From Torpedo marmorata (lineage: Eukaryota), in NCBI GenBank assembly GCA_977017645.1, contig OZ360252.1, positions 17,422,001 to 17,486,000 of the forward strand: a DNA stretch of 64,000 nucleotides. Direction: 5' to 3'. Of this stretch, positions 1-64,000 are shown in pieces (position 1 is the stretch's first letter; each line of letters starts with the position of its first letter). The notes under the pieces are model-generated. The model made no database searches. It was given only the letters and a program-made list of their open reading frames with translations, and was not told the origin of the DNA. Made by a program: the position numbers and the translations under genes.

Positions 1-151
1 CGGGGTCCACATTTTAGTTGTTTACAAACCACATCTGCAGCGTTCAGGTTGAATCCATCGGAGCACACCGTTCCCCACGTCCCATTGTACAGAACTTCCA
101 CTCTTCCTTCACATCGATGCCGTCCGTTCTTCAGGCGCATTTCTTTGTGCT
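1..151 (-). CDS. SRCR gene A, SRCR domain 6 exon (truncated by window start)
   Basis: Not in the ORF track. Reverse complement after acceptor ttttgttgatag reads (E)[49 protein letters not shown], a typical SRCR N-terminal half; phase 1. Confidence 0.9.
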
Positions 152-1383
152 CTATCAACAAAAGACGTTATGTACACTTTACCGCAATGTGTTCAAACCA
201 CCACCAGGAAATATCTGTTTTGACTTACAGAAAAACAAGAAATACAAACAGATAATCTTGAAAACACATCAGGAAGAGGCTAATGGGGCGGAACATTAAA
301 ATGATGAAAAGACGGGAGCGCGAATTTGCTGAATGTGGAGGTTTGGGGGAATGAGTGTCGGGAATGTGCATGATTGTTCTGTCTTTGACCGTGATGCGGT
401 GGTGAGAACATTGACGATGATCAATGGCTTGTTGTCAGAGAATCGCCGTTCAGAATGTTGGATCTGCTGTGCAGCATTTTCAAGGATTTGTCTCCTTCAT
501 GAGTCGCTCCGCTCCTCTGCACAGCGCACCAACCAGTTCCGTTTGACCGCAGGTTATGCTACAACTGCAGGAGACGCGACACCATTGCTTTCACACATTC
601 CCCAGGGACTCAAACAGTCCTTGTAGTTGAAAGATGGATTCACTTCAACTTCTTCCAATCATTAAATTGCATTCTATGCCACAGAATTGTCCACTCTATA
701 TTTATTAAGCTATTGCTAAGCATCTTCATTCAGTCGGCAAGAGTGGTCCTGAGCCTATCGACCACTTCAAATAATTCTCCCACTTCCACTCCTGGATTTC
801 CATCTGTGAGGCCCCGTGTTGATGCATGGAAGCTAAACACAACCGTGCGGAACAACACCATATCTTCCATCTGGACACAGCACACCCTTCCGGATTCGAT
901 AACATTGTCACAATTTTTAAGCAAATCAAATTTTAATCCAATTAAATTTTCCATATCTGTCTTTTATCATGTCCGCTCAGTTGTGTGCTCTCTTAATTTA
1001 ACCTGCCGGGATCACCCGCAGCAACATATTACACAAACACAGAAAAATAATCTGAACCGCAAAGTTACGCCAACTGTCACATTCATGGCCAGCCTATCCG
1101 AAATATTCATTTCGTTCTTCCAAACCCACTCCCAGCTTTTATGCATATCAGGCAACATGGTTTTCACTCCTTTCCGGCAGTGGCTCGGACCCGAAACGTG
1201 AAATCAGTACTTTCCAAAATTTATTCTTGCACTGTTTGTTAATTAATTGGTAGCGATCAGGAATGCAGTCCGTAAAGCACCTCGAACCCAAACACGGGAA
1301 AGGAAATGGGCAAATAAGCTTTAAAAAGAATGGTCGTGCTTCAAACATAATTGCATTGAGTGGCCCCTGCCCTTTCTATCCTT

Positions 1384-2557
1384 TGTTACGAACTAACAAA
1401 CCCTGTTAGAACTCACAAAGGAACAGCAATGGCAGATTCACCAGACAATGGTAAATTCAAAAATTGTTTTTATTAAACTATTAATAACATAACATATCTT
1501 AATTATCTCTAAACGTAACTCTAACTTAAACCCCACTGTGCGCAAATGTAAATGTGTGTGTGTTAAAGTCCAAACTATTTTAGTTTAAACTTGAATCTGA
1601 AAAAGTCAATTTTAAAGTTCAATTTCCAACTTCTTGTTGAATTTGAGGATCCCTTTAAATTATGATTCAGTAGTAAATATAAAGCAAGAATGGAGCATTC
1701 GATTTCTTTCTAACTCACAAGTCTTTTGACGAGTTGTCTTTAAGAGACAGTCTTCATACGAGTGTGTTCGCAAGTTTCCCCTATCTTGTTAGCGTTATGG
1801 AACTATGATCTTCACGATGATTTCTTTCTTAATATGGAGTAACATACGATTATGTCTTCTTTTCTTAGAAAAAATTTGAAAGTGGTCTTACTTATTTTAA
1901 AATCCACTTAGTATGTATTTCCTATGATAAGCATAATACACAGAGACAGCACACCTATCCATTCAGAGATCACTGCTCAAACTTAATTCTGTCTTTTCAG
2001 AATGTCAAAGTTCTTCAGACTTTAATCTTTGTCTTTCCAAAGTGTCAGAGTTTCTTAAACTGCTTCTTTGTCTTTCCAAAGTGTCAGAGTTTCTGCAGTC
2101 TGCTTCAGTCTGTTACAAAATGTCGATCTCTTTTCATTAAATATTTCTGACATCATGTGACATTACATCACCACAGTTTTAGTTTCATTTTCAGAAGCAT
2201 TACCTCATGCCTTTCTTCAAAATCACTTACATCCACAAAAACATCTGACGTCATCTCTGTTCCAAGAGGCTTAAGTGATTATGATTCCAAATTGTCTGAT
2301 TTCCATCAGCCAGCTGCATACTGTGTACACAAACATGCTTTTAAGCAACCACTTCAATTTTATGGCATTTGTCTTTCAAAACGCGACGAATAAGAAAACT
2401 CCCAGCTGAAATTTCTTTCTCTCAGTAATGGTTTTTGTCTGCAAATGTGCTGTGACCTGTGTGTGACCCTGTACCAGCCCACAACTAACCTTACTAAGAT
2501 ATAAAATTCGATAACTTAACATTAAATATTAATATTAACATTAACACATCCGTTACA
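1384..2557 (-). mobile_element. Solo LTR (Gypsy/ERV-type), about 1.17 kb
   Basis: TGTTACG...CGTTACA termini; 4-bp TSD CCTT (1380-1383 and 2558-2561); minus-strand AATAAA near 1470; internal ~30-bp tandem duplication near 2027-2095; interrupts a Penelope-type repeat. Confidence 0.8.
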
Positions 2558-2742
2558 CCTTCACCCCCAACCTTTTATTCAGAAGGCTGCCTGCTTTTTA
2601 CTCATACATTGAAGAAAGGCTCGGGCCCGAAACATTGGTTATATGTGTTTGTCTGCCATGGACGCTGCGAGACCTGCTGAATCCTCCAGCATATTTTTGT
2701 TCATCCTACGTTGGAGCGCCTGCAGACTTTTGCGTTTCACTT
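2558..2742 (+). mobile_element. Penelope-derived terminal repeat fragment with hammerhead-like motif
   Basis: ttgaagaaaggctcgggcccgaaac followed by gacgctgcgagacctgctgaatcctccagca; same family as 43100-43240 and 48340-48445. Confidence 0.65.
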
Positions 2743-3018
2743 AATTTCCTGCACAAATAGTGGGAAATGGCAACCAGAATCTATAGTGGCTGAAAATTAG
2801 ATGAAGTTCTTACTGTGTTACAGTAAGTAGAATTGGCAATAAAATGAGTACAAACCAGAACACTGAGAAAATATCGCTGAATAGTAGACCTGAAGAAAGT
2901 TATTGTAAGAGTTAGACGTGGTATCTCAGACTTGTGCAATGACGAAGAGGTATTAAACTTCAAATAACTATGATAACTGTGATGCAGCCGAAAATGAACA
3001 GATTGATGGCGCCCTCAC

Positions 3019-3333
3019 CAGAACATGTAATTGACACATCCTTTTTAGGCGTGCAGTTGTTTTCTCCCCACCTCGCTGACAGACATTCCCAGAGGCATGA
3101 TTCGTTCCCCGAACATCCCACTTCATCCAACCAAACTGTCCCAGAGATTCGTCCGCAGTAACGGGGACGTTTATTCTCCAAAGCATTTCCGCAACCTAGC
3201 TGCCTGCAGACCACGTTTGCGTCAATCACATCCCAGGAGTCATCACAAACTGTGCCCCAAGTACCATTGTAATAAATCTCCAGTCGTCCAGCGCATATAT
3301 CTCCACCGTCAGAGAGCCGTAGTTGCAAGTGGT
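3019..3333 (-). CDS. SRCR gene A, SRCR domain 5 exon (315 nt)
   Basis: cag|ACCAC...TGTTCTG|gtgag; [34 protein letters not shown]...DVSITCS; phase 1-1. Confidence 0.95.
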
Positions 3334-3461
3334 CTGTTGAACAACAAAACAGAAGAGCATTCGCTTCGTTACATATTAAACACATCACAGAGTTAAACAA
3401 GATATTGGCTGATGCTGCGGTCCAGTGCAGTACACAAACATGCTGGAGATACTCAGCAGAT

Positions 3462-62323: not shown

Positions 62324-62455
62324 CAATGGTGTTGGTATCACCGTTGACAACCGTCAGCATGAGCGGATCATCAGCACCACTACCCACGCGGAACTGACAG
62401 TCTTGGGAATCAATGGTTTTGTTCTCAGCGCGGTCATAGTCGGCAGGATCCATAT
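62324..62455 (-). CDS. SRCR gene B, cytoplasmic exon (132 nt)
   Basis: cttccttctag|ATATG...ACCATTG|gtgagt; DMDPADYDRAENKTIDSQDCQFRVGSGADDPLMLTVVNGDTNTI; phase 1-1, open. Confidence 0.75.
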
Positions 62456-62899
62456 CTAGAAGGAAGTAAAGGTTGTCAATGACAAACCAAAGTGACATTC
62501 CTCCAAATCATTTTGGTGTAGCGAGCTATACTTCGCCTGATGCAAGGTTTTGTTTCTCGCGTGATGCACAGTTTGACGGAGGAAAAATGTTAATAATCGT
62601 CCGGGATCTTCACGACTGAACCGAGCAATTAGACTGCGTGCTCATTTAATATTTCAGTGCCTGTGAAGGACTCGGATTAAACAAACAATGGCCATTATTT
62701 CTTTCCATTGCACAATTGGCTGCACTCGAGTCATTTGTTTCACATTCAAACTTGTTCTAAAGCTACTTATAACACAAACCCATTTTAAATATCGTTATAT
62801 TCTCCGGTATTTCACGTCGTACATATCTGCATAGTTTCTGATCATAAACAGATTTATGTAAAATAAGATAAAGTGGGAAGTCCGAAAAATGTGTCAAAC

Positions 62900-63010
62900 C
62901 ATGAACACGGGAACTGTTCCCATGAGGATGTTCTGGCTCCAGAAAAGCACCATCCGAAGGGTCGCTCGTGTAATATTCAATTTGATTGATGAAATCAATG
63001 GAACCAGACG
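62900..63010 (-). CDS. SRCR gene B, cytoplasmic exon (111 nt)
   Basis: ctctag|CGTCT...GTTCATG|gtttga; ASGSIDFINQIEYYTSDPSDGAFLEPEHPHGNSSRVH; phase 1-1, open. Confidence 0.75.
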
Positions 63011-63189
63011 CTAGAGGTCAATGAAAGTGACAGTTATTGTGGAGATTATTTTGGGAATTGTGACAGAATTCATAAATGCTTTACTATGAAAATGATGGTA
63101 TCGTGATATGCCACACGACACCATTGCGGAATATCATTCAATGCAACAACCCGGCTTACTCATGAAGTGGATGATATCACTAGAAGCAC

Positions 63190-63375
63190 TTTCCGGCCAT
63201 TTAAACACATTAAGCCCAATTACACTCAATTAACCTACAACCCCATACGTTTTGGAGTTTGAGACGAAACCGGATCACCTGGGAAAACCCACGCAAAGTA
63301 CGGGGAGAACCTGCAAACTCCTGCACACAGCTCCGGATTCGTACCCCGGTCGCGACGCTAAAAGTGCCAATTTGC
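63190..63375 (-). mobile_element. tRNA-derived SINE (also present at ~46030-46215 in the inverted duplicate)
   Basis: gaaaccggatcacctgggaaaacccacgca..ggggagaacctgcaaactcc. Confidence 0.7.
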
Positions 63376-63664
63376 AGATAATCTACATCCATTTGATTGT
63401 TACGGCAGGACGGCTGAGCAGAAGAGAACATTCGGAAATGCCGGCCATTTCATTTTTTTTAATGAAAAACCACGTCTATTAATGGAGAAGTGTACACAAC
63501 CACGTTGCACGTGTGATCACAGACATAGATGCAAAGATAGTCTGATTATCAAGGTCATACTCCATATGAGATATTTGTTCGCATCTACTCGTTATTTTCA
63601 TAACAAATAATATGGGAAGAGGCAGCAGACTAAACGACACAGTTCGATATGCTCCCATCATTAA

Positions 63665-64000
63665 ATTTAAATTTTAAAATTTAAATTTACTAATATTTGG
63701 AGATCCTTTTTCGACTATTATCAGAGTTTATGATTCCTCATTCTTTGAAGTTATATTATTACTGAAGGTCAGTGCAATTCTGGGGTGGGTGTAAGTGGTA
63801 GGTTAGTTCAGATTGCTTTAGCTTTTATAAAAAAAATGTATTATGATGAAATTACTAATTTATCTTTTTTGCGGCTTGGTTCTTTTTATACCTATTAGTA
63901 TTATAATACTAAATTGTAAATAAAAAATGATATATATCTGTAATGTATACTCTGTTATGGATGGATTAATGGAACATGTGATAATGCTTTTCTTTGCTTT
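63665..64000 (+). mobile_element. L1/Tx1 extreme 3' fragment
   Basis: KFTNIWRSFFDYYQSL* resembles the ORF2 C-terminus of the other L1s; followed by a G-rich then AT-rich UTR. Confidence 0.55.

Follow-up and report, generated by a model that had tools for sequence, protein, structure and literature searches.

A tandem array of about 55 CD163c/WC1-lineage SRCR receptor genes with a diversified outer domain in the ray Torpedo marmorata

The DNA stretch studied here (the window) comprises 64,000 nucleotides of contig OZ360252.1 from the ray Torpedo marmorata and carries parts of two genes, A and B, for receptors built of scavenger receptor cysteine-rich (SRCR) domains. It is part of a tandem array that spans 4.9 Mb and counts about 55 units, each 60–190 kb long. 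By their domain trees and a YEEI motif in the tail, the genes belong to the CD163c/SCART/WC1 lineage of jawed vertebrates, and their N-terminal domain, denoted a, is under strong diversifying selection. We consider it likely that this array of some 55 CD163c/WC1-lineage genes, whose outer domain is positively selected at the predicted ligand face, encodes inherited microbe-binding signalling receptors of leukocytes, probably lymphocytes. The first-pass annotation of the window had proposed that WC1/SCART-like transmembrane SRCR genes with tyrosine-bearing tails form a tandem cluster evolving by birth and death, which the unit count, the trees and the motif counts bear out. The strongest feature of the array, its hypervariable N-terminal domain, was absent from that annotation.

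The array and its genes

The window corresponds to C75:17,422,001-17,486,000 in the searched 6.2-Gb genome assembly. Contigs are named by the labels of this analysis (C75 carries the window; C2, C42, C59 and C666 are also referred to), and gene models drew on 80 kb to the left and 120 kb to the right of the window. A genome search with the tail exon encoding the EYYTS motif yielded 111 matches, 110 of them at C75 14.18-19.05 Mb and one elsewhere at E 4.8. Merging gave 56 minus-strand loci and at least 28 inverted loci in the array; as two of the 56 are parts of one interrupted exon, the number of units is 55. The family is thus multi-copy, as had been expected. A standard unit contains an SRCR receptor gene, an old inverted dead copy of its transmembrane (TM) and tail exons, and an orphan G protein-coupled receptor (GPCR) gene. 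The 3' halves of the genes show a median identity of 92.7%, which rises to 98.1% between nearest neighbours; for 7 of 51 3' stretches, identity with a neighbour reaches 99.5% or more, so a few units could be haplotype duplicates.

Genes A and B lie head-to-tail on the minus strand with the inverted dead copy between them; the SRCR exons and the tail motifs were found where the first reading of the window had placed them (Table 1). The leader and linker exons, the GPCR, the last coding exon of gene B and the TGA in the stalk exon of gene A are additions to that reading. Gene A has the exon order leader, linker, a, x, b, n, d, e, interdomain, d', 36-nt stalk, TM and four tail exons, and each of its 15 joined exons is bounded by AG/GT in phase 1. 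The labels a, x and n were assigned here by position, cysteine pattern and tree, the letter n in particular by cysteine pattern and position. All five SRCR exons scanned among the six in the window match PF00530, and all six have AG/GT phase-1 ends. The TM and tail exons with which gene A had been predicted to end were located 4–9 kb left of the window and are homologous to those of gene B. Gene B, whose tail had been assigned to an SRCR gene by context, indeed continues into 19 SRCR exons: one leader is followed by four a-x-b-n cassettes and then by d-e-d', TM and tail.

The tail is about 170 residues long and carries FYQAIYEEI, EYYTS and DYDRA. YEEI is present in 40 of 42 copies and YEDI in one (41/42 together). 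The three motifs originally noticed are all present, IEYYTS and DYDRA in the tail exons of gene B and AIYEDI (45354, plus strand) in the inverted copy; live copies read AIYEEI. The TM exon encodes a mid-membrane glutamate in 43/43 copies (example L038:5694-5804, minus strand), which is also found in the skate, manta, sawshark and carpet-shark homologues and is missing from those of horn shark and bony vertebrates. Read from the same acceptor, the last coding exon stays open in 48 of 50 copies, and about half of these end 9 codons early. The open reading frame (ORF) 61860-61639 was considered as non-coding, given 5' lesions in copies, and this was rejected, since the exon uses a later acceptor and is coding. 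A word-based search using the DYD exon gave no match, and a full HMMER search using the YEEI exon gave just two unrelated repeat proteins.

Domain a is encoded by 75 exons in the array, none with a stop and one truncated. Domain x has 64 copies (63 stop-free), and domain n has 64 candidates, of which the 40 scored show 98–100% DNA identity. There are 55 candidate leader exons (40/40 scored lie within the array, with 94–100% identity), 73 minus-strand copies of the 33-nt linker exon (one with a stop), and 46 GPCR copies at the array, 8 of them with stops. The architecture varies: in the fetched stretches three genes go from a directly to d, with no x, b or n in between; the number of a-domains per gene ranges from one to six, six tandem a exons occurring in one gene; and two genes lack everything from e through the YEEI exon, TM included. 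Inside unit 48, a segment with the leader and a-domain is flipped to the plus strand (C75:18.468-18.478 Mb).

A stop, frameshift or splice lesion was found in 13 of 586 coding-exon copies. For the 3' halves, 10 kb per unit were fetched and the eight exons from e to DYD were read. In 42 of 55 units all eight lie inside the fetched stretch; 34 of these are clean, one of which has a stop in d, leaving 33/42. Of the other 13 units, 8 have upstream exons beyond the stretch and 5 have deletions or breaks. We estimate that about 35–40 genes of the array are intact.

Selection on domain a and its ligand face

The 73 intact copies of domain a encode 67 distinct proteins. Their pairwise nonsynonymous divergence (dN) is 0.126 and synonymous divergence (dS) 0.078, with a ratio of 1.62 (95% confidence interval 1.18–2.26), while the flanking introns diverge by 0.074 and 0.057. 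The maximum likelihood (ML) estimate of omega is 2.05 (IQ-TREE). Comparison of site models M2a and M1a gave a likelihood ratio statistic of 554, with a class at omega 8.3 and 26 selected sites; elsewhere the same comparison detected no sites in x and d' and two in e. In the other domains dN/dS equals 0.27 for d' (0.27–0.35), which is under purifying selection, 0.47 for d, 0.57 for e and 0.75 for x.

These values bear on whether the array arose mostly by neutral amplification of segments in a large genome rich in repeats, with few copies that matter and diversity produced by gene conversion. Whole units have been copied together with introns, transposons, the dead inverted copy and the GPCR, dN/dS is close to 1 in the tail and equals 0.94 in one in-array GPCR pair, and some neighbours are nearly identical, all as such amplification would have it. 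Yet dN of domain a is nearly twice the divergence of its flanking introns with the framework conserved, no a exon has a stop, and d' is constrained. Stops per 1000 codons amount to 0.24 in SRCR exons versus 0.58–0.79 in the GPCR. Moreover, the same sites vary across elasmobranchs: 43 distinct a-domains of other sharks and rays vary at the same columns (Spearman 0.70). We therefore regard neutral amplification as improbable.

The selected sites were compared with the ligand sites of DMBT1. Its domain SRCR8 is reported to bind ligands via cations held by D1019, D1020, D1058, D1059, N1081 and E1086, and to have a buried structural site formed by D1023 and D1026 (PMC7043408). These positions were mapped via a leopard DMBT1 domain of equal spacing. 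The six ligand positions (sites 2 and 3) correspond to columns 30, 32, 70, 71, 93 and 98 of domain a, and all six are among the 26 selected sites (probability by chance about 1.4e-4). Acidic residues survive at these columns in 0–36% of copies, being mostly replaced by variable aromatic and polar residues; the structural D35 and D38 are kept in 71/73 and 73/73 copies, respectively. Hypervariability extends to the positions where Cys2 and Cys7 were lost. The alignment-based structure prediction for domain a has the SRCR fold, with a predicted local distance difference test (pLDDT) value of 96 and a template modelling score of 0.93 to DMBT1 SRCR8 (6SA5). On this mapping, an ancient cation-bridging patch has probably been turned into a variable, predicted recognition surface that is probably cation-independent. 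If so, the array would show where specificity arises, namely in a single domain, at 26 selected sites that centre on the conserved ligand face of SRCR domains, and its 67 natural a-domain variants are available for the study of microbial binding.

A surface of this kind could also recognise a polymorphic self ligand, or one involved in gamete recognition or allorecognition, instead of microbes. SRCR domains are reported to bind host proteins by the same face, as in CD6-CD166 (PMC7043408), and the lost cation ligands of domain a resemble the calcium-independent protein binding of CD6. No candidate ligand has been identified, however, and the closest characterised relatives, WC1 proteins, are reported to bind bacteria (PMC5949365), so that we find a self ligand very improbable, the least likely of the explanations considered here.

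Lineage and possible function

A quick ML tree was built from 139 of 265 extracted domains over 104 columns, 14 proteins being left out for size. Clades joining elasmobranchs with bony vertebrates were obtained for n (96), e (96), d' (81) and b/c (93; support values of the Shimodaira–Hasegawa-like approximate likelihood ratio test, SH-aLRT). The n clade contains gull, turtle, frog, bichir and eel domains at the same position, and domains of wallaby, gull, frog and fish fall into the e and d' clades. With human CD163 as the sole reference, e scores best on domain 2 and d' on domain 7; the letters e and d' therefore rest on tree and position. For five of the seven domain types of Torpedo, the tree neighbours are skate or manta sequences, and a skate protein shares 85% identity with n. 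Elasmobranch a-domains form a clade of their own (96), within which the three Torpedo a-domains in the tree group together.

The tail aligns with the YEEI/YQEI tails of bichir, sturgeon, eel, knifefish, frog, gull and wallaby. The YEEI motif is equally distant from the TM in seven bony vertebrates, and EYYTS is common to the ray tail and a frog protein. A profile of seven non-elasmobranch TM/tail sequences scores 19.9 bits on the ray tail, compared with 5.9 bits for the best of 500 shuffles; together with the alignment, this led us to reject a convergent origin of the tail.

The genes encode type I receptors of group B SRCR domains (6–8 Cys) with an exon per domain, an interdomain exon, membrane-proximal e and d', a tail with Y-(Q/E)-(D/C/E)-(I/L), and a 6-Cys n followed by d-e-d'. 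As in WC1, they form an array of many genes whose diversity is greatest in the N-terminal domain. The layouts described for the relatives are m-l-b-c-n-d-e-d' for CD163c-alpha and a plus c-n-d-e-d' for the chicken hybrids (Herzig et al. 2010, PMC2906472); the same paper is cited for the requirement of the shared tail motif for WC1 potentiation. On this sequence evidence, the genes are assigned to the CD163c/SCART/WC1 lineage. Of the earlier suggestion of an independent chondrichthyan expansion, one part stands: the expansion is lineage-specific, judging by the identity of the 3' halves and the grouping of the a-domains. The receptor type itself, by the shared n, e, d' and b/c domains and YEEI tail, is no chondrichthyan invention, being found from bichir, sturgeon and eel to frog, turtle, gull and wallaby. 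With the tail motif and the n-d-e-d' cassette, the lineage is placed in cartilaginous fish and thus predates the jawed-vertebrate split.

Homologues with the same layout and tail occur in skate, manta, devil ray, horn shark, sawshark and carpet sharks. The elasmobranch models XP_032869704.1 (thorny skate), XP_067881912.1 (horn shark) and XP_072131441.1 (manta) share the ray architecture, the leader, the TM and a tail with YEEI, EYYTS and DYDD, with several paralogues per species. Their automatic names ('DMBT1-like', 'M130-like') are misleading, and some models fuse tandem copies. In the literature searched we found no description of them as a family, nor, subscription papers lying mostly outside the search, of such an array in cartilaginous fish. 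WC1-like arrays are reported from cattle, chicken and platypus (PMC2906472), the chicken and platypus expansions also in PMC8081666 and PMC4988538.

CD163c-alpha, SCART1-2 and the chicken hybrids have in common with the ray genes the membrane-proximal n-d-e-d' cassette with a 6-Cys n, two b/c-type domains before n, a distinct N-terminal domain, and YEEI/YEDI. The two b/c-type domains of the ray are sisters instead of a clear b plus c, and its a-domain lacks Cys2 and Cys7. The layout closest to the ray is that of the chicken WC1/CD163c hybrids, reported as at least 18 chicken genes; SCART, in contrast to the ray array, is described as one or two genes in non-artiodactyl eutherians (both PMC2906472). 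Bovine WC1 is reported to comprise 13 genes whose first domain varies most (PMC3511184) and to be a hybrid pattern-recognition receptor and co-receptor for the gamma-delta form of the T-cell receptor (TCR) (PMC3511184, PMC5949365, PMC2906472), with variegated expression and gene-specific Leptospira binding (PMC5949365). Like the ray genes, it is a family of several tandem genes for type I receptors of group B SRCR domains, with N-terminal diversity, membrane-proximal e-d', an interdomain exon and a Y-E-E-I/L tail. With about 55 units and 75 a-domains, the ray array is some four times as large as that of cattle, and the n-like domain, the one to six a-domains per gene, the invariant TM glutamate and the co-amplified GPCR set it apart from WC1. 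The shared letter 'a' is a label of position, pattern and tree and does not imply orthology of the bovine and ray domains.

The genes had also been described as unlike DMBT1 or CD163A, and domain types, TM and YEEI tail agree with this. DMBT1 shares the fold only: it has near-identical repeats and CUB/ZP domains, whereas the ray genes have seven distinct domain types, a TM and a long tail. The gene model leaves no room for CUB or ZP exons, although no search aimed at them was made, and leopard and devil-ray DMBT1 domains fall outside the ray domain clades. CD163A shares the SRCR fold and the b, d, e and d' types. Its h-i-j-k head has no counterpart, as none of seven ray domains is best on CD163 domains 1, 3 or 4.

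Another explanation is that of myeloid or epithelial scavenger receptors whose domain a diversifies to escape pathogens entering via it, as viruses use CD163. Positive selection on a surface patch fits such an arms race equally well as a recognition repertoire, secreted-type copies (the stalk exon has a stop in gene A's unit, unit 8 and unit 55, and the TM is deleted in two units) could be decoys, and CD163 is reported as monocytic in humans and rodents (PMC9276791). Escape does not, however, need 75 different a-domains open simultaneously. The tail has YEEI and not the YREM described for CD163A (PMC2906472), and in cod a CD163-like SRCR gene is reported to mark a T-cell cluster expressing putative TCR gamma and delta (PMC9276791). 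We thus consider a myeloid or epithelial escape system rather unlikely.

Under the favoured interpretation as microbe-binding signalling receptors, domain a may bind microbial surfaces with gene-specific preferences through the patch with mostly replaced acidic cation ligands. Receptor clustering would then lead to phosphorylation of YEEI by a Src-family kinase and amplify cell activation, as in WC1; phospho-YEEI is a ligand of Src-family SH2 domains. Multi-a genes would broaden the recognition range, and copies with a stalk stop or deleted TM would yield soluble forms. Signalling and a T-cell co-receptor role are suggested by analogy with the relatives. TCR chains have basic TM residues, and a more specific proposal, which we put forward tentatively and with less than even confidence, is that sharks and rays have a germline repertoire of variegated WC1-type co-receptors on gamma-delta or NAR-TCR (new antigen receptor TCR) T cells, in which the calcium patch became a hypervariable surface resembling complementarity-determining regions and the TM glutamate docks basic residues of the antigen receptor. 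If true, a diversified SRCR co-receptor array would be an ancestral part of jawed-vertebrate T-cell recognition. The genes might also serve as markers of lymphocyte subsets in elasmobranchs, where 'DMBT1-like' names now conceal them.

Several observations weigh against the interpretation as inherited signalling receptors. The case rests on genomic sequence, with transcripts and splicing predicted only; no RNA record was listed for the 3' region of gene A, which speaks neither for nor against expression. Gene A has a stop ahead of the TM, its only one, a TGA in the skippable in-frame 36-nt stalk exon; from this position, gene A is predicted to yield either a soluble seven-domain protein or, by skipping of the exon, a membrane form. 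Hypervariable codons are also raised in synonymous divergence (proportion of synonymous differences 0.18 vs 0.043), so that part of the signal comes from gene conversion or multi-base changes, by which the site tests are inflated. The pooled TM and tail exons have dN/dS of 0.95 (0.61–1.57), with no purifying signal among copies; both rates (0.035–0.037) are under half the divergence of adjacent introns (0.08–0.11, where well aligned), and constraint on TM and tail rests instead on motif retention and deep homology. Exons b and n were read in just 6 and 5 copies, which makes the number of intact genes only an estimate. The tree was built without bovine WC1 or mammalian SCART sequences, and the elasmobranch a-clade is not placed relative to gull/bird or fish first domains. 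Synteny yielded nothing decisive: EMG1 was not found, TPI1 is on another small contig, and in 180 kb of flanking DNA, with 362 non-repetitive ORFs, the 150 longest of these matched only a beta-adrenoceptor and remnants of transposons or retroviruses.

Inverted copy, GPCR and surroundings of the array

Table 1. Features of the window (positions within the window)
Feature	Position	Strand	Remarks
Gene A exon 1, signal peptide	29708..29753	-	ATG, hydrophobic 15-mer, GTGAGT donor; similar N-termini in shark/ray models
Gene A exon 2, 33-nt linker	21441..21473	-	copies upstream of nearly all a-domains
SRCR a, N-terminal, 6-Cys, hypervariable	20504..20821	-	positive selection, structure model
SRCR 2 (x, b/c-type; two subtypes in array)	13862..14167	-	best match CD163 domain 5, 73.7 bits; b/c clade
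SRCR 3 (b-type)	11011..11325	-	best match CD163 domain 5, 106.7 bits vs 79.6 for the next
SRCR 4 (n-like, without Cys2 and Cys7)	9981..10295	-	near-invariant among copies; clade SH-aLRT 96
SRCR 5 (d)	3019..3333	-	best match CD163 domain 7, 121.9 bits
SRCR 6 (e), start	1..151	-	gene A runs on left of the window
Inverted dead TM/YEDI/EYYTS/DYD copy	44311..47121	+	75-82% identity with gene B 3' end
Exons of the inverted copy	TM 45081-45191; YEDI 45308-45404; EYYTS 46392-46492; DYD 46945-47077	+	
Orphan class A GPCR, two exons	54135..55704	+	PF00001; exon 1 to 54174 (possibly from ATG 54051), exon 2 from 54812
Gene B last coding exon	61636..61775	-	32% identity with horn shark C-terminus
Gene B tail exon with DYDRA	62324..62455	-	DYDRA at 62441; horn shark has DYDDV; DYD in 50/52 copies
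Gene B tail exon with EYYTS	62900..63010	-	IEYYTS at 62981; motif in 52/53 copies
Transposon fragments (LINE-like and other)	12121-13629	-	
Transposon fragments (LINE-like and other)	23096-24605	+	
Transposon fragments (LINE-like and other)	8018-8794, 50707-51484 and others		

All four exons of the inverted copy are damaged: the TM exon has a stop and a lost donor, the YEEI exon an 11-nt deletion, the EYYTS exon a 10-nt deletion and a lost donor, and the DYD exon a 1-nt insertion. A plus-strand SRCR gene behind the inverted tail was considered and rejected, as no plus-strand SRCR exon was found in the window. The GPCR is co-amplified with the unit; its block (48255-56004) is 80–87% identical, in inverted orientation, to minus-strand GPCR blocks at the left edge of the array. 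At such identities, both the inverted tail and the GPCR block predate the amplification. Likely, an inverted duplication took in the tail and the neighbouring GPCR, and repeated unequal crossing-over would then have spread the unit. Given its faster decay and the dN/dS of the in-array pair, the GPCR looks like a passenger.

Genome-wide, the GPCR family is very large, with 8,458 first-look candidates, of which 129 were scored; open copies at about 61% identity lie on many small contigs. At C75:14.141-14.170 Mb, a pair of minus-strand GPCR blocks separated by 17.5 kb shares 99.5% identity across at least 11 kb, which may reflect a very recent duplication or an assembly artefact. Other SRCR clusters of the genome lie on contigs C2, C666 and C42. 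The one at C42:63.26-64.57 Mb is a second tandem array of about 7 units of about 200 kb, mostly stop-free; further multi-SRCR loci are C2:0.40-1.57 Mb, C666 and C59:59.89-59.92 Mb. The SRCR scores of C666 exactly match those of C2 in both orientations, and C666 is possibly an assembly duplicate.

Introns and intergenic DNA of the array are full of fragments of transposons, resembling long interspersed nuclear elements (LINE-like) or other, copied along with the unit. The beta-adrenoceptor gene is intronless and lies about 70 kb left of the array (C75:14.12 Mb; L186:3221-4525), and to the right, at C75:19.13 Mb (L177:5930-7077), there is a fragmented retroviral remnant with protease and env Pfam matches.

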